Notes: a model not told the origin generated them from the letters alone. Positions 879 to 58,953 are shown, numbered from the stretch's first letter. The stretch is 64,000 nucleotides of DNA from an uncultured Methanosarcinales archaeon (GCA_964419615.1 CAYQPU010000001.1:7857-71856); one strand, 5' to 3'. Translations and numbers: made by a program.

Positions 879-1004
879 GGGCCCGTAGCTCAGTTGGTAG
901 AGCGTCGCCCTTGCATAGGGAGATTCTTCCAAAAGACAGGCGGAGGCCTCGGGTTCGAAAACGGGATCCAATTATGGAACCGGGTGAAAGCCCCGACGGG
1001 TCCA
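879..1004 (+). tRNA. tRNA-Ala (anticodon TGC) with two introns (one after anticodon position 37, one in the T-loop)
   Basis: GGGCCCG acceptor 5' arm / CGGGTCC 3' arm plus discriminator A; D-arm GCTCAGTTGGTAGAGC; anticodon loop CTTGCA; removal of about 22 nt (tagggagattcttccaaaagac) and about 32 nt (acgggatccaattatggaaccgggtgaaagcc) restores anticodon and T stems; sits in 16S-23S spacer as is typical for archaea. Confidence 0.7.
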
Positions 1005-2247
1005 TTTTCGATTACAGAAAATGACCCTCCGAACGAAAGTGAGGTTGGGTCAATTTCATATTCAATCACAATCATTTAATCAAAATGGTTTGGTTATCAG
1101 CAGAATACCAAACCTTCGGCTAAAACATCATGTTAATGCGGCCATGCATAAGTTGGAAAGGCTAAGCTATTAGGTGGATGACTCGGCTCAAGAGCTGATG
1201 AAGGGCGTGACAAGCTACGATATGCTTTGGCGAGCCGCATGTAGGCATTGAACCAAAGATACCTCAATCAGACTTCTGCTTGAATCAGTAATGATGGGAA
1301 ACGCAGGGAATTGAAACATCTTAGTACCTGCAGGAAAAGAAATTAATAAAGATGCTGCTAGTAACAGCGAGTGAAAGCAGCTTAAGGCAAACTGAATCCC
1401 TTTTTGAAAGAGAAGGGAGATGTGGTGTTATAAGACTACCTTTAAGCCCTATTCTGGCAACCTAAACTCTCCTGGAAAGGAGGACCATAGAGTGTGATAG
1501 TCACGTAAGGGTAACTGGGATGGGCCATGGTATGTTCTTGAGTACCTTTCGCTGGAAACCGAGAGGGAATTTGGGAGGCATCAACTTCCAACCTTAAATA
1601 CTACTTGAGTCCGATAGCAAACAAGTACTGTGAAGGAAAGTTGAAAAGAACCCCTAACAGGGAGTTAAAAGAACCTGAAACCTAATAGCGATCGTGTGGT
1701 ACCGCTCTACGGAGTTGTACCGTTCGTTTCGAATAACGTGCCAGGGAGTGTATTTGTGTGGCAAGGATAATCTAAAAGAGGATCCAAAGCGAAAGCAACA
1801 AACCCGCAGCTTGCGAGGGGTGGGGTGTGAAAGCGCCCATAGTCACATGGATACGATCTGAAGCTGGGCGATCTACGCTTGGGCAAGGTGAAGCCAGAGT
1901 AAAATTTGGTGGAGGCCTGAAAAGGTTCTATGGACAAGTGTTCTTCTGATCTGAGTGTAGGGGTAAAATGCTAATCGAGCCCAGCAATAGCAGGTTCCTG
2001 CCAAAGTTGGCTGTAGTCAAATCTCGGTGGAGATGGCTGAGGAGGTAGAGATACGGATTGAGAGTTTAGGCGTGGAGACACGTCGGCACTCTGTCCAACT
2101 CCGAATGCTTCAGCATCATAGATGCCGGGGGACGGGGGCGTGGGGTAAGCCCATGTCCCGAGAGGGGAACAACCCAGACTATAGTTAAGGTCCCAAAGTA
2201 CTAGTTAAGTGTTAAAGGCTAAAGAGTGTTCATTTCCCAAGACAGCG

Positions 2248-2280
<33 letters not shown>

Positions 2281-3108
2281 AAGTGCGTAACAGCTTACTC
2301 GTCAAGGAAGTGGGCCTCGAAAATGGACGGGGCTAAACTAGTCACCGATACTATAGAGTTTTGTAAAAAATTTGGTAGGCAGGCGTTCTGTTTGGATAGA
2401 AGTGTGTCTGCGAAGATGCATGGACCGGATAGAAATGAGGATCCTGGCGGTAGTAGGATCTGAGCAGCTTGAGAATAGCTGCCACCGTAAGGGCAAGGGT
2501 TCCTTGACAATGCAAATCAGTCAAGGGTAAGTTGGTCCTAACTGACTTCATAACTAGAAGTAATGAGGAAAGGGAAACAGGTTAATATTCCTGTACTATT
2601 TAGGTATCCGGCGACGAAAGCCTTGTTTCTGACGCTTTTGGGTAAGTTATCACTGTTTGTCTGCAGTGTTAACCAGCATAAATCTGTGGAGTATCTTAAT
2701 GATGAGAAACAGATTAAAGCTGGGATGAGCATCCTTCTGGGATGTATAGCTGATCCCTGGAGCCCGTGAAAAAGGAACAAGGATAAATTCTAAATAACCA
2801 TACCCAGAACCGACACAGGTGCCCCTAGGTGAGAAGCCTAAGGTGTGAAGGGACAATCCAATTAAGGGAAATCGGCAAATTAGCCCCGTGTCTTCGGTGG
2901 AAGGGGTCCCTGCGATTGTGTTCGTATGAATGCGATTACAGGGCGCAGTGACAAGGGGGGTCCGACTGTTTAACAAAAACATAGCCAACTGCCAACCCGT
3001 AAGGGCTAGTATAGTTGGTGACGTCTGCCCACTACCAGTACTTTAAACTCCTTTACAAGGGAGCGAAGAGCTGGCAAAGGGCGGGAGTAACTATAACTCT
3101 CTTAAGGT

Positions 3109-3830
3109 GAAAATCGTTGCCTTATCAAAATCTAGCTATATGCTCGAATATCTGGTGTATCTCATGCTACCAGTGGACATATGTGCGTAAGACTTTTTAA
3201 GTTTGATCACATATGAAGACTGGTGAAAATGCAATGAGTGCAGACAACGAGCAGGAAAGGCTAAATACAGATTGGGTTGTTGGATTCGTTGATGGTGAAG
3301 GATGCTTTCATGTTTCAATTAATAAAATTTCAAAGATGTCTTTGGGATGGCAAGTTCTTCCAGAATTTCGTGTTGTTCAACATGAAAAAGAAGTGAAGAT
3401 TTTGTTACAATTACAAAGGTTTTTTGGAATGGGAATTGTTGTTAAAAATCATGGAAGCAGAAAAGAGCTAAGAATAAGAGGTCATAGTACTCTTAAAGAA
3501 TTAGTTCGATTCTTCAATAAAAATCCACTGAGAACATCAAAACAAAAAGATTTTGAGATATTTGCTCAAATAATCAGTTTGATGGATCAAGGGAAGCATC
3601 TCACAAGAGATGGTTTGAAGAAAATTTCAATTCTTCGGTCAAAAATGAACCGACAAGTTAAACCAAAGTATTTAGAATCCCCAGAGACTATACGCTAGAC
3701 ACATAATATTGTGTGAAGACATAGTCCGACCCACTAGGCGACTAGTGGAGGTGTGCAGAAATGTGCATCCACCATCATCAAGATGGTCAAAACCCTAACT
3801 GTATTTTATGGGTTTAAAGTAACAGATGTG
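3109..3830 (+). mobile_element. 23S rRNA intron carrying a homing-endonuclease ORF, inserted between CTCTTAAGGT and AGCGAAAT(A/T)CCTTGTCG
   Basis: Conserved 23S sequence is colinear with E. coli/archaeal 23S on both sides of a ~720-bp insert; the insert contains a LAGLIDADG ORF. Confidence 0.7.
3213..3698 (+). CDS. LAGLIDADG homing endonuclease (single-motif, I-CreI-like), intron-encoded
   Basis: Motif VVGFVDGEGCF followed by a basic/aromatic pattern (QLQRFF, KN...KQKDFE) typical of single-motif LAGLIDADG enzymes; located inside the 23S intron. Confidence 0.8.
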   Translation: MKTGENAMSADNEQERLNTDWVVGFVDGEGCFHVSINKISKMSLGWQVLPEFRVVQHEKEVKILLQLQRFFGMGIVVKNHGSRKELRIRGHSTLKELVRFFNKNPLRTSKQKDFEIFAQIISLMDQGKHLTRDGLKKISILRSKMNRQVKPKYLESPETIR

Positions 3831-4795
3831 AGCGAAATACCTTGTCGTTTGAATGACGACGTGCATGAATGACGTAACGAGATCCCCACTGTCCCTAATT
3901 GGAACCCTCTGAACACTCTATTCTGGTGCAGAAGCCAGAGATTTCCAGTGGGAAGTGAAGACCCCGTGAAACTTTACTGTAGCCTGTTGCTGTGATGCGG
4001 ATGTTGTTGTATAGTGTAGGTGGGAGTTGCTAAAACTTGAGTCGAAAGACGAGAGATCAGACGACAATGTAACACCACTCTTCATAATTTGCATTGCTTA
4101 CTCGAAAGAGGACACCAATTGGCAGACAGTTTGGCTGGGGTGGCACGCTGCTGAAATAATATCAGCAGCGCCCAAAGGTTGACTCAACGCGGTCGGAAAT
4201 CGCGTGTGGAGTGCAAGGGCATAAGTCAGCCTGAATGGATTCTCACTAAGACAGATTCCAGCAAAGAAATTTTGGCCTAGCGAACCTCTATGTCCTCCTT
4301 GATGGGGGCTAGAGATGACCGAAAAGTTACTCCGGGGATAACAGAGTTGTCTCCCCCGAGCGTTCACAGTTGCTTGCGGCTATTGGTCGCAAGCGACCGA
4401 ACAGAGCGACGGGGAGGCTTGCTACATCGATGTCGGCTCTTCCTATCCTGGTGGTGCAGAAGCCACCAAGGGTGGGGGTGTTCACCCATTAAAAGGGATC
4501 GTGAGCTGGGTTCACAACGTTGCGAGACAGTTGGTTTAATATCTACTGGAAATGTAAAATGTCTGAGAGGAAGGATGTCAAAGTACGAGAGGAACTGGCA
4601 TTCGAGGCCTCTGGTCTACCGGTTGTCTGACAAGGCAGGCCGGGCAGCTACGCCTTAGAGGATAAGAGCTGAAAGCATCTAAGCTCGAAACCTCCCCCGA
4701 AAATAGACATTTATAGAACTCCTGCAGAACACAGGTTTGATGGAGCTGGGGTGTAAGTACCAAGGTAACGAGGTATTCAGCCCGCAGCCACCAAA

Positions 4796-4903
4796 AGTTC
4801 TTACTCAACTATGCATGGTTTTTTCATTTTTTTTTCTATTTCATTTCAACATAAACAATATTGGTATAGTGTAAGCTATGTTGTTATGATTAGTACAATA
4901 ATT
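4796..4903 (+). repeat. Direct repeat copy 1: 23S 3' terminus (agttcttactcaactatgcatgg) plus about 85 bp of trailer
   Basis: Imperfect direct repeat (roughly 80 percent identity by eye) with 5888-5986; both contain agttcttactcaactatgcatgg, ataaaca(t/a)tattg and agctatgttgt-attattagtacaa. Confidence 0.75.
4819..4837 (+). terminator. T-tracts (TTTTTTcaTTTTTTTTT) immediately after the 23S 3' end; probable rRNA operon terminator
   Basis: Archaeal termination occurs at oligo-T; located directly after helix-1 closing strand. Confidence 0.35.
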
Positions 4904-45292: not shown

Positions 45293-46450
45293 TTATAAGA
45301 TATTATTTAATTCTTCTACTGTTCTATCAACATGTTCTTTTTGTATTATTAATGGTGGTAGGAATCTAAGTACTGTTGATGATGCCGGAGCTGCTATTAT
45401 TCCTTTTTCCTGAAGTTTTTTTAGGTATTCACTGCTTTTCTTTTTTAGATCTAGTCCTATCATTAGACCTGCTCCACGTACATCTCTTATCAGAGGAGAA
45501 TCAAGATTGTTTAGTTCTGACATAAAGTAACTTCCAATTTCCTTACTATGACTTAATAGGTTGTTTTGCTCAATGTAATTGATTGTTGCAAGGCTTGCAG
45601 CACATACTAATGGATTCCCTCCAAAAGTAGAGCTGTGAACACTCTTACCTACAGTTTCTGCAATTTCTTCAGTAGTGAGTGTTGCACTCATTGCAAGACC
45701 ATTTGCTATTCCTTTGGATAAACAGATTATATCTGGTTCTACATTGTAAAGTTCTGAAGCTGTCCAATGTCCTGTTCGAAATCCTGTTTGGACTTCATCA
45801 AAGATTAATACTGTTTCTGTGTCATTGCAGATGTCTCTAGCTGCTTTAAGGTATTGCTTTGTTGCAAGTTTTATTCCTGATTCTCCCTGGATTGGTTCAA
45901 GGATTAATGCGGCTGTATCTTTATTCACTGTTTCTTTTAATTCTTCCTCATCATTAAATCTGATTTGCTCAAAGCCAGGAATTAGTGGTAAAAATGGTTT
46001 TCTGTACTTAGGACTTGAAGTTGTTGCTGAGAGTGTAGCCAAAGTCTTTCCATGATAACCTAATTTTGCGGATATTATCTTTCTTCTTCCAGAATAGATC
46101 ATTGAGAATTTTATAGCTGCTTCAACTGCTTCTGCACCAGAGTTTCCAAAGTAGATTCTATTTAGATTCTTGGGTGTAATACTGATCAATTTTGCTGCTG
46201 CTTTTTCACGGACTTTATTATGAAAACTCCAATGTATGTTTGAGATTTTGGATAGTTGATCTGTGATTGCGCTGTTTATAGCTTTACAGTTATGACCCAA
46301 AATACTAACCCCAATGTTTGTCATTAAGTCAAGATATTTATTTCCCTTATCATCATATAGATAGACTCCGTTTCCTCTTGTGATGTTTAGTTCTCTAACT
46401 GGAAAGGTTGAGATCATTATTTTTTTATTATCTAAGTTTTCATTATTCAT
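45293..46450 (-). CDS. lysJ: Class III PLP aminotransferase, LysJ/ArgD-type ([LysW]-aminoadipate semialdehyde / acetylornithine aminotransferase)
   Basis: FDEVQTGFRTG and SKGIANG (PLP-Lys) motifs. Confidence 0.85.
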   Translation of the reverse strand: MNNENLDNKKIMISTFPVRELNITRGNGVYLYDDKGNKYLDLMTNIGVSILGHNCKAINSAITDQLSKISNIHWSFHNKVREKAAAKLISITPKNLNRIYFGNSGAEAVEAAIKFSMIYSGRRKIISAKLGYHGKTLATLSATTSSPKYRKPFLPLIPGFEQIRFNDEEELKETVNKDTAALILEPIQGESGIKLATKQYLKAARDICNDTETVLIFDEVQTGFRTGHWTASELYNVEPDIICLSKGIANGLAMSATLTTEEIAETVGKSVHSSTFGGNPLVCAASLATINYIEQNNLLSHSKEIGSYFMSELNNLDSPLIRDVRGAGLMIGLDLKKKSSEYLKKLQEKGIIAAPASSTVLRFLPPLIIQKEHVDRTVEELNNIL

Positions 46451-47232
46451 TGTATCACAGTTCCTTTTTTTATATCTTTTATTGGGTGCTCAACTCTCCC
46501 ATCTGTAATGTAAACTGTTGTTTGACTATTTTCAAATAGTTTTCTAAGGGCAAGGATTTTGCGTTTTATTCTGCCTTCTACTTGTTGCTCGCGCTGCTCT
46601 AATTCATCACAGTTTATTTCCTTTACAAGTGAATCAGGATCATTAAGATTATCTAATAAACCCTGAGCTTCTATTAATTGGATTATTTTGTCTGCAGGTA
46701 TTGCTTGGTGAATTACATTTACTATATTATCATTTTCAGAGTTTATTGCAAACCCATTTTCATCAACTATGGGTACAGTAATTACCGGAGTGTATCCATT
46801 ATCTAATAATAGCCTGAGTAGGGCGGTGTTTACAGATTTTGGTTTACCTGAAAAATCTCTTACAATTTTTAGCTTGTTATTTTCTTTAATCCTAATCCCA
46901 TTGTTTCTACTTCCTTGAATTAATCTTCCATCTAAACCAGTTAAACCTATTGCGTTTATTCCATTTTGTTGACATAGTTCAACAATTCTTTTGTTTTTAA
47001 GGCCAGAGTATGCCATCATCATTATATCAAGGGCATCCTTGTCTGAGAATACACTTGAATAGCCAGATACTGATTGAATTGTTTTTTTTGGTTTGTCTAA
47101 TTGCTCAGCAATTTTATCTCTTAGAGCATTTGCTCCATGAACTATTATGAATTTTTCATCTAGTTCTGATAGATCCTTAATTATCCCTTCAATGTTAATA
47201 TCTGCTCCTCCTCCAATCTTTACAATTATCAT
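46447..47232 (-). CDS. lysZ: Amino-acid kinase family, LysZ/ArgB-type
   Basis: IVKIGGG...IVHGANA motif; operon position. Confidence 0.8.
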   Translation of the reverse strand: MIIVKIGGGADINIEGIIKDLSELDEKFIIVHGANALRDKIAEQLDKPKKTIQSVSGYSSVFSDKDALDIMMMAYSGLKNKRIVELCQQNGINAIGLTGLDGRLIQGSRNNGIRIKENNKLKIVRDFSGKPKSVNTALLRLLLDNGYTPVITVPIVDENGFAINSENDNIVNVIHQAIPADKIIQLIEAQGLLDNLNDPDSLVKEINCDELEQREQQVEGRIKRKILALRKLFENSQTTVYITDGRVEHPIKDIKKGTVIQ

Positions 47233-47888
47233 TTAAAACACCTTGTTGTGTTGTTAGGTATAGGTTTTGATTCATTGTTAAATTTTTCTGAACATATTAC
47301 CAATTTGTCAGTTTCACTAAGGTGCATTGTGAAATATTCTGATCTTTCATTAAAATTTGTTGATAAAAATATGTTTTTAGTTTGCATATTTACAATTACC
47401 AAATTTATTGCTTTAACAGTATTTGTTCTACATACAAGATAATCAATTCCTTTTTTAATTGCATTTAATAAAGAATCTGATCCACTTGATTGTTGTAGTT
47501 CAGAGTCTCGAAATCTTTTGATAAGATTAAATATTTTTTCAGCACCAATTCTTCCATGTTCCCTTATTCTAACTCCTCTTAATTCTCCATTAAACACAAA
47601 GACTAGTTCATTATCAGTAAACGGCATGTTGTTTTCAATTACTATGTCTTTGTCTTCAAATGCACTTCTTGCATGAACAATTAGTAAGTTTGTTTTTTCA
47701 AATTTCTCAAAATCATCTTCCCAGATAGGATTAATGTTTTTGTAAAATTTCCAACCTCCTGAAAAAAAGGCACACCCCCAACCATGGCCTTGATACTCTT
47801 TGCTGTTTTGGCACAATTTAGCAAATTTTTCTAGATAGGGAGCTATTTCAAACTCAGTGTTTGATTTGATTATTAGTATTCTACACAT
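47229..47888 (-). CDS. Class II glutamine amidotransferase / Ntn-hydrolase-like protein
   Basis: N-terminal MCRIL (Cys2 nucleophile), HARSAFED...NNMPF resembling GATase-II core. Confidence 0.5.
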   Translation of the reverse strand: MCRILIIKSNTEFEIAPYLEKFAKLCQNSKEYQGHGWGCAFFSGGWKFYKNINPIWEDDFEKFEKTNLLIVHARSAFEDKDIVIENNMPFTDNELVFVFNGELRGVRIREHGRIGAEKIFNLIKRFRDSELQQSSGSDSLLNAIKKGIDYLVCRTNTVKAINLVIVNMQTKNIFLSTNFNERSEYFTMHLSETDKLVICSEKFNNESKPIPNNTTRCFK

Positions 47889-47904
47889 TTTTTATGTTGA
47901 GTTA

Positions 47905-48936
47905 TTAAACTGGATGAAGGCCTGGAAATTCAAGTCCAAGGGTTTCTTTGAAACCACTCATTAGATTCATTGACTGAACTGCTTGACCTGCTCCTCCTTT
48001 CATTAGATTGTCAATAGCGCCCATTACAACTAACCGGTTTGATTTTGGATCTACCTCAAATCCTACTTCACATATGTTTGTTCCTGCAAGTATTTTTGGT
48101 TCAGGGTATCTATATACTCCAGTTCGCTTTTTTACTAGTCTTACAAAAGGTTCATCTTTGTAGGCTTGCCGATATGTATTCCAGATTTGTTTTTCATCAA
48201 CTCCATCTTTTAAAAAAAGGTGAGATGTTGCCAAGATTCCTCTTATTAATTCAATTGAAGTTCCTGAGAAATGAACAGTTGGTTTGTGGCGAAAGTTTAG
48301 TTCTTGCTCTACTTCTGCTGTGTGTCTGTGACCTGTTGGCTTAAATGATCTTACAGCATGTGATCTTTCTGAGTGATGCGAGGCAAGGCTTGGCTTGTTT
48401 CCTGATGCCGAGCTTCCTACCTTTGCTTCAGTGATCACTGTTGATTCAACAAGGTTGTTTTTAAACAAAGGATATAGTCCTGTGATTGTTGCTGTGGCTA
48501 GACATCCTGTTCCTGCAACTAGATCTGCTTTTTTTATTTTTTCTCTATGTAGTTCAGCCATGCCATAAACAAATTTACTTAAGTATTCTGGATTAGGATG
48601 ATCTTCACCATACCACTTTTGATAGTCTTCTTTTTGTCTTAATCTAAAGTCTCCGCTAAGATCAATTATTTTTCCTGCTTTTTGCTGGAGCTCTGTTATT
48701 TTTTTCATTGCTAATCCATGGGGCAGTGCTAAAAATAATATGTCTGATTCTTCTAGATCATTTATTGTTGAAAATTTCAAGTTGTGGCCTCGAAGGTTTG
48801 GATGTACATCATGGACAAATTTTCCTGCAAATCTTTCTGAGGTTACTTGTTTTAGTTTTACTTTTGGATGTCCTAAGAGAAGTCTTACAGCTTCTCCACC
48901 TATGTAACCGCTCGCTCCAACTACACTTACTTTCAT
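47905..48936 (-). CDS. lysY: N-acetyl-gamma-glutamyl-phosphate / [LysW]-aminoadipyl-phosphate reductase (ArgC/LysY)
   Basis: VVGASGYIGGE NAD(P) motif and catalytic GCLATA. Confidence 0.85.
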   Translation of the reverse strand: MKVSVVGASGYIGGEAVRLLLGHPKVKLKQVTSERFAGKFVHDVHPNLRGHNLKFSTINDLEESDILFLALPHGLAMKKITELQQKAGKIIDLSGDFRLRQKEDYQKWYGEDHPNPEYLSKFVYGMAELHREKIKKADLVAGTGCLATATITGLYPLFKNNLVESTVITEAKVGSSASGNKPSLASHHSERSHAVRSFKPTGHRHTAEVEQELNFRHKPTVHFSGTSIELIRGILATSHLFLKDGVDEKQIWNTYRQAYKDEPFVRLVKKRTGVYRYPEPKILAGTNICEVGFEVDPKSNRLVVMGAIDNLMKGGAGQAVQSMNLMSGFKETLGLEFPGLHPV

Positions 48937-49775
48937 TTTTTTGCCTCCTTGATTAAATAATTAACAATTTTTTCTGGAATATTAACTCCAGTTGTATCAA
49001 TGCTGTTTCTAAATTCCATTGTATGATTGATTTCATTTATTATCATTCCATTGTCTGTTTCAAATATATCCATTGCTAAGATTCCACCACCAACTGCTTT
49101 AGCAGCCTTTAAACAGATATTATTGATCTCTTCTGTTATTGGGCAGTTAGTTGCCGTGCCACCTCTTGCTGTGTTGGTTATCCAATGGTCTGAAGCTCTG
49201 TAAATTGCACAAATTGTTTCATTTCCTACTACAAATGCCCTTATATCCCTTCCTGGTTTTTTTATGTATTCATTAATAAAAAAAACTGAGTGATGGTATG
49301 AACCAAGTACTTGTTTGTGTTCAAGTACTGTTTCTGCAGCAGCTTCATTATCAATTTTTGACAAGAGTCTTCCCCAAGAACCTATTGCCGGTTTTAAGAC
49401 TACTGGATAACCAAATTCTTGTATTGCTTTCATTGCGCTTTCCCTTGAAAATGCAACTTTCACTCTTACCGCAGGTACTTTGTTTTTTTCCAAAGCAAGT
49501 GTTGTTAATATTTTATCTCCACATGTTCGTACTACTTTTGGTTTATTTACTATTTTTATATCATGATCATCTAGGATTTTTGTGATATGTCTTGATCTTG
49601 AAAAATTGATGCTTCTATCTATTATTATATCTGTTTCAAAGACTGGTGTTTTTTCCAAACAAAAAGTTAAATCTCTATCATCAATTCTTACTAATTCAGC
49701 TTTGCTCTTCTTTATAGTCTCAAATAGTAATTTCTCTTCACGTCTAACCCTTGAGCATATGACTCCAATTTTCAT
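48933..49775 (-). CDS. lysX: RimK-type ATP-grasp ligase, LysX/ArgX family (paralog 1)
   Basis: ATP-grasp blocks GYPVVLKPAIGSWGR, FFINEYIKKPGRDIR. Confidence 0.8.
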   Translation of the reverse strand: MKIGVICSRVRREEKLLFETIKKSKAELVRIDDRDLTFCLEKTPVFETDIIIDRSINFSRSRHITKILDDHDIKIVNKPKVVRTCGDKILTTLALEKNKVPAVRVKVAFSRESAMKAIQEFGYPVVLKPAIGSWGRLLSKIDNEAAAETVLEHKQVLGSYHHSVFFINEYIKKPGRDIRAFVVGNETICAIYRASDHWITNTARGGTATNCPITEEINNICLKAAKAVGGGILAMDIFETDNGMIINEINHTMEFRNSIDTTGVNIPEKIVNYLIKEAKK

Positions 49776-50602
49776 TTTAGGCTCACCATGTAATCTATAA
49801 TATCATCTGTTATTTTTTCATCTAGATGAGGGAAGTAAACACTAAATTCAGGTGTATAATCTACTTCTAACACTTGTATTCCTTTACGAGATTCAAGCAT
49901 ATCAACACATACAAAATCTCCGTTTACTGCATTTTTTGCCTTTAAGGCCAATTTTTTGATTTTTGGAGTGACTGTGCATTTAGATATGCTTGCTCCTTTG
50001 TCTATATGAGTTATCCAATGTTTTGAATTACGGTAAATTGCATATACTTTGTTCCCTACAACAAATACCCTTATGTCTCTGCCGTGTTTCTCAATGTATT
50101 CTTGAACATAGTATACTGAGTGGTGATATGTTCCAAGATTCTTTTTATGATAGACAATTGCTTCAGCTGCTTCTTTATCATTGATTTTTGCAAGAAGTTT
50201 ACCCCAAGAGCCAATGGCTGGTTTTAGTATGACTGGGTAACCCATTTCCTCGATTATATCAAGTGCTTTTTCTGGTGTGAAGGCTATTTGTACTTTTGGT
50301 GTTGGAATTTTGTTCATGATTAAGGCTTCTGTAACTGAGAACTTGCTGCCGCAGATTTGAGCAGTTCTACCTGAGTTTACTGTTTTTACTCCAAAACTGT
50401 TTAGAATATTAAGTGCATACATTGCTGTTAAATGATTCATGCATCTTTCTAGAACAATATCATGATCAAATCCATTTTTTCCTATGTCAAATAGTAGATC
50501 TTGCACTTTAATTAAGTCTAGTTCAATGCCTTTTTTATTAGCTGCAGCTATTAGAAGCTTTTCATCTTTTCTAATTCGCTCATATAGCATTCCAATTTTC
50601 AT
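49772..50602 (-). CDS. argX: RimK-type ATP-grasp ligase, LysX/ArgX family (paralog 2)
   Basis: GYPVILKPAIGSWGK, YVQEYIEKHGRDIR; tandem paralog of previous gene. Confidence 0.8.
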   Translation of the reverse strand: MKIGMLYERIRKDEKLLIAAANKKGIELDLIKVQDLLFDIGKNGFDHDIVLERCMNHLTAMYALNILNSFGVKTVNSGRTAQICGSKFSVTEALIMNKIPTPKVQIAFTPEKALDIIEEMGYPVILKPAIGSWGKLLAKINDKEAAEAIVYHKKNLGTYHHSVYYVQEYIEKHGRDIRVFVVGNKVYAIYRNSKHWITHIDKGASISKCTVTPKIKKLALKAKNAVNGDFVCVDMLESRKGIQVLEVDYTPEFSVYFPHLDEKITDDIIDYMVSLK

Positions 50603-51741
50603 CGATATACACCCGGTAATTGTACACTTGGATTAACTTCTCTAATTATTCTCACAATCTGTGAATCTCCTAATACATTGCTATCTCTATTTTTTATTAA
50701 ACTAATTACCTCACTAAAAAATTCTTCTGGAAGCTCTATTCCCATCAGATCCAGCTTATATTGTAGAGCTGGCTTACTTACAAATTTATCAATTATAATT
50801 TCTCTTTGGCCACCTACCAAATCAGTAAACCCATTTTCATAATGGTCAGGACTTGATAAGACTGCTGACACGTGTAATCCTGCATTATGAGTAAATGCAT
50901 AACCCCCTACAAAGGGTTCCTGCTCTGGTATTAAAATTGCAGAATATTTTTCCACAATAGAAGATAATTCTTGAATTACATCAAAATTCCATTCATTTGT
51001 AACATTGAAATCATGTTTTAAAAGAGTACACACACTTGCAAGTGAAGCTATTCCTGTTCTTTCACCTAGTCCATTAACTGTTACATCAATTACACTTGCT
51101 CCAGCTCTGTATGCTGCAATTGAGTTTGCAGTCGCCATTCCTTTGTCATTATGACAATGTACATGAAGATCTACATCTAGTTCTTGTGATAGTCTTAAAA
51201 CATAGTCATACATTTGCCAAGGTAGCATACAGCCTGCTGTATCAGCAATACTGATTCTGTCTGCTCCAGCTTGCACAGCAGCTCTTGCTACTCTTACAAC
51301 TCGGTCAAAATCACTTCTAACAGTGTCTTCAGGTGTGTATCGAACTTTTAATCCATATTGTTTTGCATGTTTTATTGTATCAGTTATGATTCTTGTTGCA
51401 TCTTCTTCAGATTTTCGATACATCTCTTCCATTCTCTTATCTTTAAGACTGTAAAAAATTCCAACCCAGTCTGCTCCAAATTGATGGGCATAGTCTATGT
51501 CAGAAGACACAGCCATACAGTGAACTAAGAATTCGGCTCTAAGATCAAGCATGCAGATTTTCTCAACAGCTTTTCTAATACTTGGACTAACTGCTGGGTG
51601 ACCTACTTCAATTATTTCAGCACCAAATTCATCAAGAAGCTTTGCAATTTCTATTTTTTCATTTACTGTAAAGCTTACATATGGTGTTTGTTCACCTTCT
51701 CTTAGTGTACTGTCCAATATGGCAATACTCATTGACCCCAA
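50599..51741 (-). CDS. Homocitrate synthase / 2-isopropylmalate synthase family (HMGL-like)
   Basis: DSTLREGEQ, HCHNDKGMATANS motifs. Confidence 0.75.
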   Translation of the reverse strand: MGSMSIAILDSTLREGEQTPYVSFTVNEKIEIAKLLDEFGAEIIEVGHPAVSPSIRKAVEKICMLDLRAEFLVHCMAVSSDIDYAHQFGADWVGIFYSLKDKRMEEMYRKSEEDATRIITDTIKHAKQYGLKVRYTPEDTVRSDFDRVVRVARAAVQAGADRISIADTAGCMLPWQMYDYVLRLSQELDVDLHVHCHNDKGMATANSIAAYRAGASVIDVTVNGLGERTGIASLASVCTLLKHDFNVTNEWNFDVIQELSSIVEKYSAILIPEQEPFVGGYAFTHNAGLHVSAVLSSPDHYENGFTDLVGGQREIIIDKFVSKPALQYKLDLMGIELPEEFFSEVISLIKNRDSNVLGDSQIVRIIREVNPSVQLPGVYR

Positions 51742-51890
51742 TCCTCTTCAGCCTCAGGAGCAAGTTCTAATGCTAAAGGATCCAAGGCTCTTACTTCTAG
51801 TTCAGCTCCACAATCCCCACAGTTTACAACTTCTCCCACTTCAACTTCTCCGATTTTAATATTTGCTCCACATTCTGGACAATCTACCAT
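51729..51890 (-). CDS. lysW: LysW amino-group carrier protein (53 aa, absent from ORF track)
   Basis: Own translation of minus strand: MVDCPECGANIKIGEVEVGEVVNCGDCGAELEVRALDPLALELAPEAEEDWGQ; zinc ribbon CPEC...CGDCG and C-terminal EDWGQ typical of LysW; 13-nt overlap with downstream gene. Confidence 0.75.
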   Translation of the reverse strand: MVDCPECGANIKIGEVEVGEVVNCGDCGAELEVRALDPLALELAPEAEEDWGQ

Positions 51891-52160
51891 ATTTTTACCT
51901 CCGTTTGTTTAGATTTATTCATATTATGTTATTTGCCTGTTTAATTTTTCATATTGAAAACCTTGGCAAAATAAGACAATGAAGAGCTAACGCTGTTCTA
52001 ATTTAAATTTTGATTTAGCCATAATCATATTATCTCTCATTGTACACACACAAAATATATTCTAATAGTTAGATTATTTAAGAATCATAAAAGGTTATAT
52101 TAACTTAATGTTATTATTTTAACAAAATTTATAAGTAATTGTTATTTCTTAATATTTAAA

Positions 52161-52817
52161 ATGGTAACCATTTCCCATATTGTTTCAGAAAAATTGTCCA
52201 AACGCCCATTTTTGCAGGAAGCTCTTTCAAGAGGACTGATCAACTACGGTGCTTTAGCTGATGATTTAATTCCCATAGTTGAAACAACTCTTCACAAAAA
52301 AGTCAAACATTCTGCAGTGATGATGGCGATTAGAAGATATACTGAAAATGTCCGGAAAAATGAGTTTAAGCAAATTGAATTTTTTAAAGGTACAGATTTG
52401 AGTGTCAGATCTAATTTATGTGAGATTACTTTCCAGCGTTCAACCAAAACATTGGACAAAATAATGTTGATATATGATATTATTAATCCTAATCAAGGAG
52501 ATATGCTTAATATAATTCAAGGTAACTATGAAATAACAATTATTTCAAATCAATCTCTAAAAAAACAGATTATCAAGATAGTTGGCAAAAGTAATATGAT
52601 TAAGTGCTTTGATAAGCTTTCTTCAGTTTCAATTCGTTATCGTGAGGAGATCATTCACACACCTGGTTTTATTTTGGCTTGTGTGAAAGCAATATCCTGG
52701 GAACAGATTAATATTGTTGAAATTGTATCAGCAATGACTGAATTAACTTTTATTCTGGCAGAAAAAGATGCAATTCCTGCCTTTGAGATTCTACAAAACT
52801 TAATTTCCAGCAATTAG
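52161..52817 (+). CDS. ACT-domain protein resembling aspartokinase regulatory region
   Basis: C-terminal ...GFILACVKAISWEQINIVEIVSAMTELTFIL pattern typical of ACT domains; divergent from the lysW operon. Confidence 0.4.
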   Translation: MVTISHIVSEKLSKRPFLQEALSRGLINYGALADDLIPIVETTLHKKVKHSAVMMAIRRYTENVRKNEFKQIEFFKGTDLSVRSNLCEITFQRSTKTLDKIMLIYDIINPNQGDMLNIIQGNYEITIISNQSLKKQIIKIVGKSNMIKCFDKLSSVSIRYREEIIHTPGFILACVKAISWEQINIVEIVSAMTELTFILAEKDAIPAFEILQNLISSN

Positions 52818-52989: not shown

Positions 52990-53496
52990 ATGAATTTGAA
53001 AAAGTTAATTTTAATTGGTTTGATATTGTTGATAACGTGCATGGTTCTTGCACAAGAGGAAGCAATTCCTGAGCTTATTAGTGTTGAAGATCCTCAGGAT
53101 GTTCCCCCAGCAGAACCTGTTCAAGAGTTGGAAGTTGAGATTGTCGGAGAAGAAAAGGGGTCAGCTATGGAAAGTTTATCACAGCTAAAAACAAAGGTGA
53201 TTGGCTGGTTCTCTTTTGTTGCTAGTAGAAATTATTTATCTGCTGCAAAAAATCTTGCAAGTAATGTTTTAGGATTGAAACTATGGATTAAGATTGCTAT
53301 ATCTGTTGCTATTGTAATAATTGCATTGATTGTTTGGGCATCTTTGTTCAAAGATTCAAAACGTAACAATATGCGAAGAGCAAGAAAACTGCATAAAAAA
53401 GCAAAAAAAGCTCATGACAAGGGTGATGAAGATAAAGCAACTGCTTTGTATCAAAGATCAGCTGAATACCGAGAAAAAGCCCAGGAGCAATGGTAA
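52990..53496 (+). CDS. Small membrane-anchored protein with basic C-terminal tail
   Basis: Signal/TM at N-terminus, second TM, tail KRNNMRRARKLHKKAKKAHDKGDEDKA; 7-nt overlap with next gene. Confidence 0.45.
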   Translation: MNLKKLILIGLILLITCMVLAQEEAIPELISVEDPQDVPPAEPVQELEVEIVGEEKGSAMESLSQLKTKVIGWFSFVASRNYLSAAKNLASNVLGLKLWIKIAISVAIVIIALIVWASLFKDSKRNNMRRARKLHKKAKKAHDKGDEDKATALYQRSAEYREKAQEQW

Positions 53497-54206
53497 AAAT
53501 GGAATGGTTTGAAGAACTTGATTTTGATGAGAATCCTTTTGATACTAATCCAAAAAAGTATCCAGAAAAATTAGTTGGATTAACAGAGATATTTGAAGAT
53601 CTTATTTATAGAATAGAATCTGGGGCAATGGTCTTTTTGGAAGGTAAAGAAGGTTTTGGAAAGACTTCCTTGCTTTGGAATGCTATAAAGAAAAAAAGAG
53701 GAAAGGGAAAGATAATTTATGTTGATTGTGATATGCTTGATGAAGACTTGAATATTGAAAAGCTAATGATCAACAGGCATGGTCTTTCTGGGAAACTGTT
53801 TAAAACAAAACCAAAAGGTATGATTCTGCTGCTTGACAATGTTACAGCACTCAGTAAACTTAATTCAGAAAGAGTTAAGTACTTTTTTGACCAGGGTTAT
53901 CTTAGGTCAATTGTTTTTACTGGAAAAAGTTTTGGGAAAGTTAATTTTTCAAAAAGCCTAAAGCAAAGAATTGGAAGTAGAGTATTGAATATTAAGTCTG
54001 TTGACAAGTACCAAGCAATTGCTATTGTCAGAAACAGGATTCAAGATCTTAATATGATATCTGATGATCTTATTGAAGAGGTTTTCCAAAAATCAGGTGA
54101 GAATCCAAAAAGATTGTTAGAGAATTGTGAAAAGCTTTTTGGTCATGTGATTGAGAGTAATGAAGATAAAATAACTAAAAAGCACTTGAAAGTAATAGAG
54201 GGATAA
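53490..54206 (+). CDS. Archaeal-type P-loop ATPase (Arch_ATPase-like), Walker B lacks Glu (LLLDNV)
   Basis: DENPF, FLEGKEGFGKTSLL Walker A, ILLLDNV. Confidence 0.6.
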   Translation: MVKMEWFEELDFDENPFDTNPKKYPEKLVGLTEIFEDLIYRIESGAMVFLEGKEGFGKTSLLWNAIKKKRGKGKIIYVDCDMLDEDLNIEKLMINRHGLSGKLFKTKPKGMILLLDNVTALSKLNSERVKYFFDQGYLRSIVFTGKSFGKVNFSKSLKQRIGSRVLNIKSVDKYQAIAIVRNRIQDLNMISDDLIEEVFQKSGENPKRLLENCEKLFGHVIESNEDKITKKHLKVIEG

Positions 54207-54207
54207 A

Positions 54208-55128
54208 ATGTTATGGTATAAAGAATGGGGATTTCATGATAATCCTTTTAGTATAAAACCTGCTGCTTTTAACAGCATTGTAGTTGGATATGATCTATCT
54301 GAGATCTTTGAGAAAATTGATAATGGTGAAATATTGTTTCTCGAAGGAAAATTTGGTTATGGAAAAACAACTATACTAAAGCATATTATTAGCAGATACG
54401 GTGGTAGAAGAGAAGTTGCGTATTATAATTGCAACAGAAAAGAAGGTGACGTTGAAGTTGAGAGTGTCCTGAGAGGAAAGTATGGTTTGCTTGGCAAATT
54501 GTTTCTTGGAACTCCAAATAACATGATTCTTTTGCTTGATGAAGTAGGTAGTCTGTCTGAATCTGACCAGCAGGAATTATTAAGACTTCATTCAGAAGGC
54601 AATTTAAAATCTGTTGTACTCTTCGGACCAAAATTTGAATTGGTTAATGTGATTGCAGACTTAAAGCAAAAATTGGTTGATAATGTAATTGAATTAACGA
54701 AGTTAAGTGACGAAGAGGCAATTGAACTAGTGAGACAAAGGATTGGCAATGTTAAATTATTATCAGATGAGATTATTAAAAGAGTATATGAAAGTTCTGA
54801 TAAAACTCCTAGAGTGTTGCTTGAAAATCTTGAAGACTTGTGCAAATATGCTGTTGAGAATAATGAAGAAGAAGTTACAGAGGATCATTTAAAGGATGTT
54901 CTTGACATCAAGAAAACAAAAAAGAAAAAACCTAAGGCAGTGGCAGTTGTAAAAAAGAAAAAACCTAAAAAGGAAGCAAAGAAAGAAGGCAAAAAAGAAA
55001 AGGTTGAAGAGAAAACAGAAACTAAAGAGAAAGAAAAACCTAAGGAAAAAGTAAAACAAGGACCAAAGGGACTTCAAACACCTCAGGAAATTGCTGAAGA
55101 AAAAGAAGCTGAATTTTTTTATTATTGA
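54208..55128 (+). CDS. Archaeal-type P-loop ATPase paralog with about 80-aa poly-Lys/Glu C-terminal tail
   Basis: HDNPF, FLEGKFGYGKTTIL Walker A, ILLLDEVG Walker B; tail KKTKKKKPKAVAVVKKKKPKKEAKKEGKKEK... Confidence 0.6.
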   Translation: MLWYKEWGFHDNPFSIKPAAFNSIVVGYDLSEIFEKIDNGEILFLEGKFGYGKTTILKHIISRYGGRREVAYYNCNRKEGDVEVESVLRGKYGLLGKLFLGTPNNMILLLDEVGSLSESDQQELLRLHSEGNLKSVVLFGPKFELVNVIADLKQKLVDNVIELTKLSDEEAIELVRQRIGNVKLLSDEIIKRVYESSDKTPRVLLENLEDLCKYAVENNEEEVTEDHLKDVLDIKKTKKKKPKAVAVVKKKKPKKEAKKEGKKEKVEEKTETKEKEKPKEKVKQGPKGLQTPQEIAEEKEAEFFYY

Positions 55129-56199: not shown

Positions 56200-58953
56200 A
56201 TGGAAGATAATCAACTTTTAAGAGAGCGGAAAAGAAAATTAGCTGAGCTTAGAAAAAAAGGTATTGAGCCATATGCATATAATTTTGATAAACAGCATTT
56301 TGCTGATAAAATATTAAAAGAATATAATAAATATGAAGATAAGAAAGTAAGTGTTGCTGGAAGAGTTATGTCTATGAGGGATATGGGAAAGGTTAGATTT
56401 GCTCATATTAATGATTCTACTGCACAGATTCAATTGTATTTTAAAAAAGATATTATTGGCAGTGATAAGTATTCTGTGTTAAAGCTACTGGATATTGGAG
56501 ATATTATTGGATGCCAAGGAAAGGTGTTTAAGACAAACAAAGGTGAAGTGAGCATTGAGGTAAAAAGCTTTAGTCTGTTGACAAAATCTCTAAAACCTCT
56601 TCCTGAGAAATGGCATGGTATTAAGGATAAAGAACTTCAATATCGGCAAAGGTATGTTCATTTAATAATGAATCCTGATGAAAAACAAGTATTTGTGACC
56701 AGAGAAAAGATTATTGGTGGGATTAGGCAATACCTGTTGGATAGAGACTATGTTGAGGTTCAAACCCCAATCTTGCAACCTATGTATGGAGGTGCTTCAG
56801 CAAGACCTTTTGAAGCAAATCTACATGCTTTGAATATGCCTGTTTATATGAGAATTTCTAATGAGATGTATCTGAAAAGGCTTATTGTGAGCGGCTTTGA
56901 CAGAGTATTTGAGTTTTCAATTGATTTTAGAAATGAAGGAATTGATAAAAACCATAATCCTGAATTTTTATTGTTTGAAGCAATGACTGCATATACAGAC
57001 TATTTTGACGGTATGAAATTGATTGAGGATATTACTGAGCATGTTGTTAAGAAAGTTAAAGGTACAACAAAAGTTAATTATCAGGGAAAAGTTATTGATT
57101 TTAAGGTTCCCTGGACCCGAATTTCTGTTAGAGAGTCTATTTTAAAATATGCTAAAATTGATATTGAAAAAGTAGACGATAATGAGCTAAAAAAGATTTT
57201 GGATAAAAACAAGATCCAACTAAAAGGGCAATACACTCGAGGAAATGCAATTTTGGCTTTGGTTGATGAATTTTGTGAACAGCATTTTGTACAGCCAACA
57301 ATTCTTTATGATTATCCAAGGGAAACTTCTCCACTATCAAAACCAAAAAGAGATGACCCAAAATATACCGAGAGATTTGAGCAGTTTGTAAACTGTTCTG
57401 AATTAGGAAATAATTATACAGAGGTTACCAATCCTCAAATTCTCAGAGAGAATTGGGAAAATGAAGAGGATGCATTGAGTAAAGGAGATTATGAGGCAAT
57501 GAGAATGGACTATGATTACCTTAATGCTCTTGAAGTTGGAATGCCTCCAGTTTGTGGGATTGCAATTGGTATTGACAGATTGATAATGATTCTTACTGAC
57601 AAAATATCTATTAGAGATGTTATTTTGTTTCCATTTATGAAACCATTGGACATGCCAAAGCCGCAGCTTCAGACTGTCCAGCTTAAAGATATATCCGGGA
57701 GTAAAGTTATTGTAACAAAGGGAGCTCAAGATCTGGGTTTAAAAACAGCTTATGCAATAATTGATGGAGTTAATGTTAAGTCCAAACATGAAGAGTTGGA
57801 AAAACAAAAAAAGAAAGCTGGTATTCTAAAGGCAGATACAGGGAAGTTAAATGGTATGCAAGAAGCTTATAGATCATTTGGTATTGATCCAACTAAGAGG
57901 ATCCCTAGTGCAGAAGCTTTGATAAAAAGAGTTGAACAAGGAAAAGGGATATACAAAGTAAATACGTTAGTAGATGCTTATAATCTTTCTTCTATTAGAG
58001 AAAGTTTACCAATGGCTGCTTATGATTTAGTCAAAGTTAACTGGCCAATCAAATTAAGAGAGGCTAAAGAAGGCGAAGAAATAACTATTATTGGTGGGGA
58101 TAAAAAGAAAACAAAACAAGGAGAGATTATTTATGCTGATGAATCAAGAGTGTTATGTTTAGATTTTAATTATAGAGACTGTGATTTTACTAAGATCACA
58201 AATAAAACTAAGCAAGTTATTGTTTTTGTTGATGGATGCATTGGAGTTAGTGATGATGAATTATTGCAATCTCTTGATAACACGTGTGATTTAATTACTC
58301 AGTTTAATGGTGGGGAGGTTGTTGAGAAATGTATTGCAGGAAGAGAAGCTTTATCTGAAAAAACTTCCTTGTCAAAACCTCCACTTACAAGAGAGCAAGC
58401 ATGGGCACTTATTAAAAAGTACAATAAGCATGAACCAGATACTTATCATTTTCTTGAAAGTGAAGCAATAATGAAGGCTTTGGCTGAAAAGCTAGGTGAA
58501 GATGTTGATGCTTGGGGAATGCTTGGTTTATTACATGATGTTGATTGGGGTTTGACTAAAGATAATGTGAGTGAGCATACAGTTAAGTCTATTGAGATTC
58601 TAAAGGAAGCTGGATTTAAGGAAGATTTTATTGAAGCTGTTGCATCCCATAATTATGGCTGGCCAGGTGGACAGTGGGCAGATAAGAAGAGAACAAAAAA
58701 AGTTCATTTTGCCCTTGCTTGTGCAGAAACCCTAACTGGATTAATACATACTTATGCTTTGATGAGAAAGGATAAAATACAAGGCATGAAAGCAAAGGGT
58801 CTAAAAAAGAAGTTTAAGGACAAGAGCTTTGCAGCTAAGGTAAATAGAAATATCATCAGAGAATGTGAAAAGATTGGTCTGAGTATGGATGAATTTTTTA
58901 ATCTAGCAATTGATGCTGTACGCAAGATTGCAGACCAAGTAAAGCTTAAATAG
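56200..58953 (+). CDS. lysS: Class II lysyl-tRNA synthetase fused to C-terminal B3/4-like and HD domains
   Basis: Class II motif 2 IDFRNEGIDKNHNPEFLLFEAMTAY and motif 3 GIAIGIDRLIMIL; then B3/4-like block (VNTLVDAYNLSSIRESLPMAAYDL...VLCLDFNYRDCDFTKI...VFVDGC); then HD motif (GLLHDVDWG ... H..Y). Confidence 0.8.
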   Translation: MEDNQLLRERKRKLAELRKKGIEPYAYNFDKQHFADKILKEYNKYEDKKVSVAGRVMSMRDMGKVRFAHINDSTAQIQLYFKKDIIGSDKYSVLKLLDIGDIIGCQGKVFKTNKGEVSIEVKSFSLLTKSLKPLPEKWHGIKDKELQYRQRYVHLIMNPDEKQVFVTREKIIGGIRQYLLDRDYVEVQTPILQPMYGGASARPFEANLHALNMPVYMRISNEMYLKRLIVSGFDRVFEFSIDFRNEGIDKNHNPEFLLFEAMTAYTDYFDGMKLIEDITEHVVKKVKGTTKVNYQGKVIDFKVPWTRISVRESILKYAKIDIEKVDDNELKKILDKNKIQLKGQYTRGNAILALVDEFCEQHFVQPTILYDYPRETSPLSKPKRDDPKYTERFEQFVNCSELGNNYTEVTNPQILRENWENEEDALSKGDYEAMRMDYDYLNALEVGMPPVCGIAIGIDRLIMILTDKISIRDVILFPFMKPLDMPKPQLQTVQLKDISGSKVIVTKGAQDLGLKTAYAIIDGVNVKSKHEELEKQKKKAGILKADTGKLNGMQEAYRSFGIDPTKRIPSAEALIKRVEQGKGIYKVNTLVDAYNLSSIRESLPMAAYDLVKVNWPIKLREAKEGEEITIIGGDKKKTKQGEIIYADESRVLCLDFNYRDCDFTKITNKTKQVIVFVDGCIGVSDDELLQSLDNTCDLITQFNGGEVVEKCIAGREALSEKTSLSKPPLTREQAWALIKKYNKHEPDTYHFLESEAIMKALAEKLGEDVDAWGMLGLLHDVDWGLTKDNVSEHTVKSIEILKEAGFKEDFIEAVASHNYGWPGGQWADKKRTKKVHFALACAETLTGLIHTYALMRKDKIQGMKAKGLKKKFKDKSFAAKVNRNIIRECEKIGLSMDEFFNLAIDAVRKIADQVKLK

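Follow-up and report, generated by a model that had tools for sequence, protein, structure and literature searches.

The LysW route is a standard example of carrier-mediated amino-acid synthesis and of the ancestry that lysine and arginine biosynthesis share. Its alpha-aminoadipate (AAA) pathway requires homocitrate synthase (HCS), homoaconitase, homoisocitrate dehydrogenase (HICDH), an aminotransferase and the proteins LysW, X, Z, Y, J and K. The carrier is LysW, an amino-group carrier protein (AmCP) whose canonical sequence closes with EDWGE; it takes up substrates on the gamma-carboxylate of its C-terminal Glu. The final step has so far been assigned solely to LysK, a peptidase of the M20 family. 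A second small carrier or tag is Pup of the actinobacteria; its gene specifies either Gln or Glu as the last residue, according to species. A single enzyme, Dop, removes the amide from the C-terminal Gln of Pup and also cleaves the gamma-glutamyl isopeptide, and PafA is a separate ATP-dependent ligase that uses the Glu form. Attachment of the AAA substrate to the C-terminal residue of LysW, E53, is described in Thermococcus kodakarensis (PMC12998189). In ergothioneine synthesis, EgtC acts as a stand-alone N-terminal nucleophile (Ntn) amidohydrolase which removes a gamma-glutamyl group from an intermediate (PMC9103826). Finally, the genome paper of Caldithrix abyssi places LysWXZYJ and Hcs in the locus Cabys_3146-3153, names no LysK, and suspects a non-orthologous displacement (PMC5317091). 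Here we describe a stretch of 64,000 nucleotides (nt) from an uncultured Methanosarcinales archaeon (GCA_964419615.1 CAYQPU010000001.1:7857-71856), called the window below, with a lysW operon in which the gene of a 219-amino-acid (aa) Ntn-type protein probably stands in for lysK.

An earlier note on this window, made from its sequence, had read the minus strand as lysW, a homocitrate-synthase-like gene, two lysX genes, lysY, the gene of the 219-aa protein, lysZ and lysJ. Profile matches bore out this order and every assignment, and all eight open reading frames (ORFs) were confirmed at their minus-strand coordinates, each with a match of its own. Since neighbouring genes either overlap by 4 nt or are separated by gaps of at most 16 nt, we regard the eight as one operon, in which the first 4 nt of lysZ lie within the end of the Ntn gene. 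LysX, LysZ, LysY and LysJ are encoded together, as in the LysW/AmCP lysine pathway operons. LysW itself is a zinc ribbon (CPEC...CGDC...EEDWG) with two CxxC pairs, an acidic tail and the EDWG motif, and is present as a public gene call (P0151).

The distribution of the Ntn gene proved to be wide. A word-indexed search returned 3118 clusters of homologues, mostly of ~211 aa, and an exhaustive search of representatives at 50% identity returned 673 homologues at E≤1e-3 and 295 at E≤1e-10. A scan of one genome per species put the number of species with the gene at 559 or more. Genomic context was examined in 80 species-level loci, covering ~8 phyla and two domains. The Ntn gene adjoins lysY and/or lysZ in 78 of the 80, and the usual order is lysW-(HCS)-lysX-lysY-Ntn-lysZ-lysJ; presence in orthologous operons, on which the earlier note had made its proposal depend, is thus the rule. 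The hosts are, among archaea, metagenome-assembled genomes (MAGs) of Woesearchaeota and Methanosarcinales and, among bacteria, Desulfobacterales and other Thermodesulfobacteriota, Ignavibacteria, Melioribacteraceae including the cultured Rosettibacter primus, Calditrichota, Bacteroidota, KSB1 and Gammaproteobacteria. Divergent family members (~110-140 bits) likewise lie inside lysW operons. Clustering of 658 other flank ORFs yielded no family in more than 16 of the 80 loci, and no M20 gene was among the recurrent annotated ones. We conclude that the Ntn family is essentially confined to lysW operons.

Several loci depart from the usual layout. Two of them (L020 and L045) contain Ntn-lysZ-lysJ without lysW, lysX or lysY upstream, and L070 contains Ntn-lysZ only. 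A 477-aa protein from the representative library (P0249) joins the N-terminal part of the Ntn protein to an AA_kinase (LysZ) domain. This is a genuine fusion of Ntn and LysZ or else the result of a frameshift between the adjacent genes. One of the lysW genes (P0161) stands isolated; at another (P0163), the two lysX genes are followed by a gene for a 212-aa protein without Pfam match, which may be the Ntn protein.

The presence of the Ntn gene was found to coincide with the absence of lysK from the locus. No M20 or LysK homologue was detected in the 64-kb window, either by Pfam search of ten other large ORFs or by six-frame phmmer with two LysK queries (the in-cluster proteins of loci L093 and L220), so that what the earlier note had said of the operon, that it contains no M20-type LysK, extends to the whole window. 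An in-cluster M20 gene (PF01546) was found in each of three lysW loci that lack the Ntn gene (L091, L093 and L220), in L220 in the order W-X-X-Y-Z-J-M20-argG-argH. Matches of the six-frame LysK search were confined to these three loci; the 80 genome Ntn loci and 50 metagenomic lysW loci, described below, gave none. The Ntn gene and an in-cluster M20 LysK are therefore mutually exclusive at the level of the locus. Rearranged operons showed in addition where the gene can go. The order is W-X-Y-Z-J-Ntn in L136 and W-X-Y-HCS-Z-J-Ntn in L105 and L216, so that the Ntn gene, following lysJ, occupies the position that lysK has in L220. These locus-level data suggest that LysK has probably been displaced in Ntn operons and is not merely unlinked. 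Both observations, the exclusion and the shared slot, support the suggestion of the earlier note that the Ntn protein is a non-orthologous replacement of LysK.

A feature on which that note did not remark is the end of LysW. The lysW gene of the window closes with GAG GAT TGG GGT CAA TGA, which encodes EDWGQ, with a C-terminal Gln (CAA) and not the canonical Glu. The same end was found on independent contigs of this lysW gene and in the three closest LysW relatives (P0152, P0153 and P0155; 70-74% identity). A scan of metagenome contigs for EEDWGQ with a stop codon right after it returned 80 loci, of which 50 are lysW genes. An artefact of sequencing or gene calling was considered and is ruled out by the independent contigs, the relatives at 70-74% identity and the 50 metagenomic genes.

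Among Ntn-type operons, LysW ends in Q in 9 of 64 species and in E in the other 55; in a broader LysW sample, 95/98 proteins end in E and 3/98 in Q. Gln-ended LysW belongs to at least 10 clusters, as defined by clustering the partner Ntn proteins at 65% identity. These clusters are often nearest to Glu-ended relatives, and one clade is wholly of the Q type (8/8). Such scatter, often beside E-type relatives, indicates that E/Q switches, which take a single G/C change, are recurrent.

In the loci sampled, Gln-ended LysW is restricted to operons with the Ntn gene. The gene was present in all 15 EEDWGQ-stop metagenomic loci whose contig extends past lysJ, and no M20 gene was found in any of the 50 EEDWGQ-stop lysW loci; at a further locus with Gln-ended LysW (L221) the contig ends directly after lysY. 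Comparison of 3118 Ntn clusters with at least 7755 LysW clusters puts Ntn-type operons at no more than ~40% of LysW operons. At a base rate of ≤0.4, which is a rough ratio of cluster counts, the probability of 15/15 is ~1e-6. Of the few Glu-ended LysW loci sampled outside the Ntn set, three were of the LysK type. Two metagenomic loci contain another lysW-like ORF immediately before the Gln-ended lysW (L118:6778-6945 and L165:462-629). The C-termini of these ORFs are non-canonical (…AVEDWADS and …KAPSASPD, respectively), and they may be degenerate duplicates or spurious ORFs.

Profile searches placed the 219-aa protein near class II glutamine amidotransferases (GATases) without assigning it to any of them. 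Scores were 20.3 bits against Pfam GATase_4 (threshold 23), 20.6 bits against GATase_6 (threshold 27) and 30.1 bits against the EgtC model TIGR03442 (cutoff 218.65); there was no Pfam match to Peptidase_M20 (PF01546). A phmmer search of PDB sequences with the single protein found no match, and a family profile reached EgtC only at E 0.05. Public annotation of the family is, at best, 'glutamine amidotransferase'. Because sequence similarity to characterised enzymes is marginal, the assignment of a function rests on fold and context. A confident AlphaFold2 model built from 25 homologues (pLDDT 85.8, pTM 0.86) was compared with known structures by Foldseek, which ranked EgtC entries at the top (E 6e-10, TM 0.71). 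The protein is thus predicted to have the four-layer alpha-beta-beta-alpha Ntn fold. The median pI of the family, 8.25, is mildly basic and not decisive for LysW binding.

Conservation was surveyed in 66 representatives at 27-48% identity. Residues C2, R3, W56, R74, P89, N100, G112, G115 and N162 are invariant, and Q33, the G36-W37-G38 motif, H72, A73 and G101 are at least 90% conserved; C2 is also invariant in 25 close relatives. Met-Cys is a substrate of methionine aminopeptidase, whose action leaves Cys as the first residue, just as it is in PurF and GlmS. The N-terminal Cys2 and the class II GATase-like core proposed in the earlier note are thus confirmed by the MCR start, the invariant C2 and the modelled Ntn fold, and the catalytic Cys is kept throughout the 66 diverse relatives.

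The active site was mapped by MAFFT alignment with the glutaminase domains of Escherichia coli GlmS and PurF. H72-A-R74 aligned with H-T/V-R73 of GlmS and PurF, N100-G101 with the oxyanion Asn-Gly (GlmS N98-G99), and G115-A-E117 with D123-T-E of GlmS and D127-S-E of PurF. We take Arg73 of GlmS and PurF to bind the alpha-carboxylate of glutamine, and D123 of GlmS and D127 of PurF presumably bind its alpha-amino group. Read in this way, the alignment suggests that the Ntn family retains the carboxylate-binding Arg and has an invariant Gly in place of the Asp that binds the alpha-amino group. This combination would fit a glutamyl group with a free alpha-carboxylate and an acylated alpha-amino group, that is, the C-terminal residue of a polypeptide.

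We infer from the fold and the genomic context that the 219-aa protein probably hydrolyses the C-terminal gamma-amide of LysW, with two outcomes: release of lysine or ornithine, and deamidation of Gln-ended LysW. In the proposed reaction, the initiator Met would be removed and Cys1 would attack the gamma-carbonyl of the last LysW residue. The amine would then leave, with formation of a LysW-gamma-glutamyl thioester on the enzyme, and hydrolysis of the thioester by water would regenerate LysW-Glu. With lysine as the leaving group, or with ornithine made through the second LysX paralogue, the reaction would complete the pathway in place of M20 LysK. With ammonia as the leaving group, the encoded Gln-ended LysW would become LysW-Glu, which is open to ATP-dependent activation by LysX. 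As an ATP-grasp ligase, LysX needs a carboxylate, so that Gln-ended LysW must be deamidated before use. By descent, Cys hydrolases of the class II amidotransferase type are gamma-amidases of glutamine. Since an enzyme of this kind would cleave the gamma-amide regardless of the leaving group, an E-to-Q change would be nearly neutral in the presence of the Ntn protein and lethal to the pathway with LysK alone. That such a change is close to neutral only where the Ntn gene is present would account for the scattered occurrence of Q-type LysW and for its confinement to Ntn operons. The replacement of LysK suggested in the earlier note gains further support here from EgtC as the nearest fold, from the apparent loss of the Asp and from the occurrence of Gln-ended LysW only alongside the Ntn gene. 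A more ambitious reading is quite possible, although we stop short of calling it probable: LysW of this lineage would be an inactive, Gln-ended pro-carrier, activated and unloaded by one Ntn amidase in convergence with Pup and Dop, and the amidase would represent an unrecognised family which has displaced LysK in hundreds of species.

Several points weigh against the proposed function. Similarity to any characterised enzyme is marginal (E 0.05 for the EgtC match of the family profile, and a GATase_4 score below threshold). The Asp-to-Gly mapping derives from a sequence alignment at ~15% identity and not from superposed coordinates, and hhalign of the family profile with the glutaminase domain of E. 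coli GlmS gave no usable alignment. Two of the 80 loci, L081 and L084, carry the Ntn gene without lysW-pathway neighbours, and the base rate behind the association with Gln-ended LysW is, as stated above, a rough ratio of cluster counts. Finally, an unlinked M20 peptidase (LysK, ArgE or DapE-like) elsewhere in the genome could be the deblocking enzyme. The second of the two loci without pathway neighbours (L084) belongs to Candidatus Entotheonella.

The possibility of an unlinked M20 peptidase leads to the alternative that survives best, which we nevertheless judge unlikely. The Ntn protein would be an accessory, deamidating Gln-ended pro-LysW or proofreading misligated LysW in the manner of a type II thioesterase, while an unlinked M20 LysK or ArgE releases the product. 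Such a role would account for the constant company of Gln-ended LysW and the Ntn gene, M20 peptidases are common in prokaryotes, and our M20 search covered the loci and the window, which leaves room for an unlinked gene. However, ~85% of Ntn operons (55/64) encode a Glu-ended LysW that needs no maturation, and yet the gene is kept in all of them. Moreover, LysK is in-cluster in the non-Ntn loci but missing from every Ntn locus, and the lysK slot after lysJ is taken by the Ntn gene in L136 and L216.

A true glutaminase or amidotransferase subunit acting on free glutamine, providing for example glutamate for LysJ or ammonia for a partner, is very improbable. The class II GATase fold, the conserved Cys1, Arg and Asn-Gly and the public annotation 'glutamine amidotransferase' all point that way, but the protein is a stand-alone one of 210-220 aa without synthase domain, and its conserved partners are LysW enzymes alone. 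In the alignment, an invariant Gly stands opposite the Asp expected to bind the alpha-amino group; ammonia is not required at any step of the pathway, and the Gln-ended LysW would be left unexplained. We give just as little credence to a transamidase that would pass the thioester formed from Gln-ended LysW to the alpha-amine of aminoadipate or glutamate, so that the carrier would be loaded with no ATP spent. Transfer of acyl-enzyme intermediates to amines is within the capacity of Ntn and gamma-glutamyl enzymes, and the clade with solely Gln-ended LysW (8/8) would suit this activity. Against it, every operon retains at least one LysX with an intact motif, most operons encode a Glu-ended LysW, and a single turnover would leave LysW-Glu, which depends on LysX in any case. 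That the gene is a passenger unrelated to LysW, kept by chance or shared regulation as its solitary occurrence in L081 and L084 might suggest, is the least credible of all, given a position conserved across two domains and ~8 phyla even after operon rearrangements, translational coupling to lysZ by the 4-nt overlap, and the covariation of Gln-ended LysW with the gene.

The tandem lysX genes bear on whether ornithine could be a second product. From the two copies, the earlier note had suggested that the carrier is shared between lysine and arginine or ornithine synthesis. Both LysX-a and LysX-b score higher against 3vpd and Thermus thermophilus LysX (1uc8) than against 3vpb, a chain that we take to be ArgX of Sulfolobus tokodaii; LysX-b reaches 293 bits against 3vpd and 270 bits against 1uc8. 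Specificity motifs were read from HMMER alignments and a MAFFT survey. At positions 182, 192, 203 and 258/259 of T. thermophilus LysX, the five-residue motif is F-I-T-NS in LysX and I-Y-V-GF in ArgX, and a hydrophobic, aromatic pocket is associated with glutamate (PMC12998189). LysX-b has F-I-T-NS, the Thermus LysX signature. LysX-a has F-I-I-VY, which is ArgX-like, with hydrophobic or aromatic residues, at 203 and 258/259, making it a candidate LysW-glutamate ligase. Extra LysX copies elsewhere show F-V-I-QY (L011) and F-V-I-KF (L035). In all 71 primary LysX proteins of Ntn operons the motif is F-I/V-T-NS, with or without HCS in the operon. The motifs support, but do not prove, a LysX/ArgX split on one carrier, and no arginine genes (argG, argH) were found in the 64-kb window. 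The idea of a carrier shared by lysine and arginine synthesis is thus partly supported by the residues of LysX-a at 203 and 258/259. We also considered whether the HCS-less operons of Desulfobacterales are arginine-specific; this was not adopted, since their single LysX carries the aminoadipate-type F-I-T-NS.

As to the upstream steps, no homoaconitase or HICDH homologue was found within the 64-kb window, and the lysine pathway may for this reason be incomplete in this genome. Three extra ORFs lie between HCS and lysX in two Woesearchaeota loci (L011:4526-7299 and L052:5175-8013). Judging by their size and position, and by analogy with an annotated cluster, they appear to encode the large and small subunits of homoaconitase and a homoisocitrate dehydrogenase. 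Woesearchaeota operons such as L011 would then appear to encode the whole AAA pathway except the aminotransferase and LysK, with the Ntn gene present. The best genomic matches of the 219-aa protein (57% identity) and of LysW (70%) are themselves Woesearchaeota MAGs, and the host is probably an archaeon of Woesearchaeota-like (DPANN) type. By a comparison of size and orientation only, the ORFs downstream of lysJ in L011 resemble those downstream of lysJ in the window.

Coordinates of the operon genes and of the region upstream of lysW are collected in the table below. The HCS-like protein scores 368 bits against TIGR02146, under the cutoff of 413. Translation of its gene probably begins with the ATG at 51732, which shares the sequence ATGA with the lysW stop codon and would give a product of 377 aa; the JGI gene call for this protein is likewise of 377 aa. 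LysJ reached 355 and 325 bits against the LysJ models, beneath their strict cutoffs. A GGAGGT ribosome-binding site lies 8 nt before the lysW ATG, and the promoter of the operon is presumably within the intergenic region. The divergent gene on the far side of this region (52161-52817, plus strand) encodes a DUF7523 protein of 218 aa (Pfam 27.4 bits, at threshold), which could be a regulator of the lysW operon.

Table. The lysW operon of the Methanosarcinales window and its upstream region (positions counted from the first nucleotide of the window).
Feature	Position	Strand	Evidence
Intergenic region upstream of lysW, common to the divergent DUF7523 gene	51891-52160		sequence reading
lysW	51729-51890	minus	53 aa; TIGR01206 76.3 bits (cutoff 53.2); PF21344 E 4e-18
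Homocitrate-synthase-like (HCS) gene	50599-51741	minus	PF00682 E 1e-67; PF22617 HCS_D2 E 1e-11
lysX-a, divergent second RimK/LysX-type ATP-grasp ligase	49772-50602	minus	PF08443, PF22626; TIGR02144 271.6 bits (cutoff 275.6)
lysX-b, canonical LysX (alpha-aminoadipate-LysW ligase type)	48933-49775	minus	TIGR02144 327.9 bits, above cutoff
lysY/argC-type [LysW]-aminoadipyl/glutamyl-phosphate reductase	47905-48936	minus	TIGR01850 396 bits (cutoff 233.6); PF01118, PF22698
219-aa Ntn/class-II-GATase-fold protein (MCRIL...), stand-alone	47229-47888	minus	weak sub-threshold profile matches
lysZ, [LysW]-aminoadipate kinase	46447-47232	minus	NF010659 245.4 bits (cutoff 223); PF00696
lysJ/argD-type class III aminotransferase	45293-46450	minus	PF00202 E 2e-106; TIGR00707 404 bits (cutoff 410)

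Other features of the window were recorded. It starts with a partial small subunit (SSU) rRNA gene, a spacer tRNA and a large subunit (LSU) rRNA gene, is archaeal, and has a G+C content of ~32-35%. The LSU rRNA match (1147-4814) measures ~3.67 kb against a model of 2987 nt, and a LAGLIDADG_1 homing-endonuclease ORF lies inside it (3213-3698, plus strand; Pfam E 4e-25), which together indicate that the 23S rRNA gene is interrupted by an intron encoding a homing endonuclease. The tRNA in the SSU-LSU spacer (879-1004, plus strand, 126 nt) scores 47.8 bits with Rfam, but ARAGORN predicts none in the entire window, and this tRNA is probably intron-containing or otherwise atypical. A plus-strand gene at 56200-58953 encodes a protein of 917 aa that combines a tRNA-synt_2 class II core with an OB anticodon domain, B3_4 and HD, an unusual fusion. 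Two adjacent plus-strand genes (53490-54206 and 54208-55128) encode paralogous AAA_14/ATPase_2-like ATPases with similar N-termini, the second of which has a long Lys/Glu-rich tail.

If the proposed function is correct, it closes the pathway hole already noticed in C. abyssi (PMC5317091). On account of this hole, hundreds of species come out of automated reconstructions as lysine auxotrophs; these include Ignavibacteria, Calditrichota and Desulfobacterales, some Bacteroidota and Gammaproteobacteria, and DPANN archaea. The label 'class II glutamine amidotransferase' would acquire a specific meaning for thousands of proteins, and a cysteine-thioester mechanism would be added to the deblocking of carrier proteins. 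It would also explain why some LysW genes end in a Gln codon, a residue that LysX cannot activate, and would bear on lysine synthesis of its own by a small-genome DPANN-type archaeon. In the openly searchable literature we found nothing linking LysW with an Ntn-, amidotransferase- or EgtC-type enzyme, and the GapMind 2026 preprint on novel amino-acid biosynthesis enzymes contains no mention of lysK.

Compared with known systems, the closest in function is LysK of Thermus, Sulfolobus and Thermococcus, an M20 peptidase homologous to ArgE, for which the proposed reaction is the same: removal of lysine or ornithine from the gamma-carboxyl of the C-terminal Glu of LysW. The two also share the slot after lysJ (Ntn in L136 and L216, M20 in L220). 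However, LysK is a di-metal peptidase of ~350 aa, whereas the Ntn protein is a predicted cysteine hydrolase of ~215 aa, unrelated in sequence and fold, and LysK would not be expected to deamidate a C-terminal Gln. The 219-aa protein may thus work like LysK without being a member of the LysK/ArgE (M20) family. In fold, the closest is EgtC (PDB 4zfj, 4zfk and 4zfl), which acts on a gamma-glutamyl bond of the type that links lysine to LysW. Its identity to the Ntn protein is only 15-20%, no egtA, egtB, egtD or egtE lies near the Ntn gene, whose neighbours are all LysW-pathway genes, and instead of a free gamma-glutamyl compound the Ntn protein would have a protein C-terminus as its substrate. From the class II amidotransferases (PurF, GlmS, AsnB and GltB) and the YafJ/PA1307-type proteins, the Ntn protein differs in having no synthase domain, in the apparent change of the alpha-amino-binding Asp to an invariant Gly, and in the restriction of its family to lysW operons. 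With Pup and Dop, finally, the proposed LysW/Ntn system would have the logic of carrier processing in common. The protein families are unrelated, Dop and PafA being glutamine-synthetase-like; Pup serves protein tagging and LysW amino-acid biosynthesis, and the acceptor is a Lys epsilon-amine in the former and the alpha-amine of an amino acid in the latter. We view a LysW pathway with a proposed unrelated, cysteine-based deblocking enzyme as a variant of a known system.

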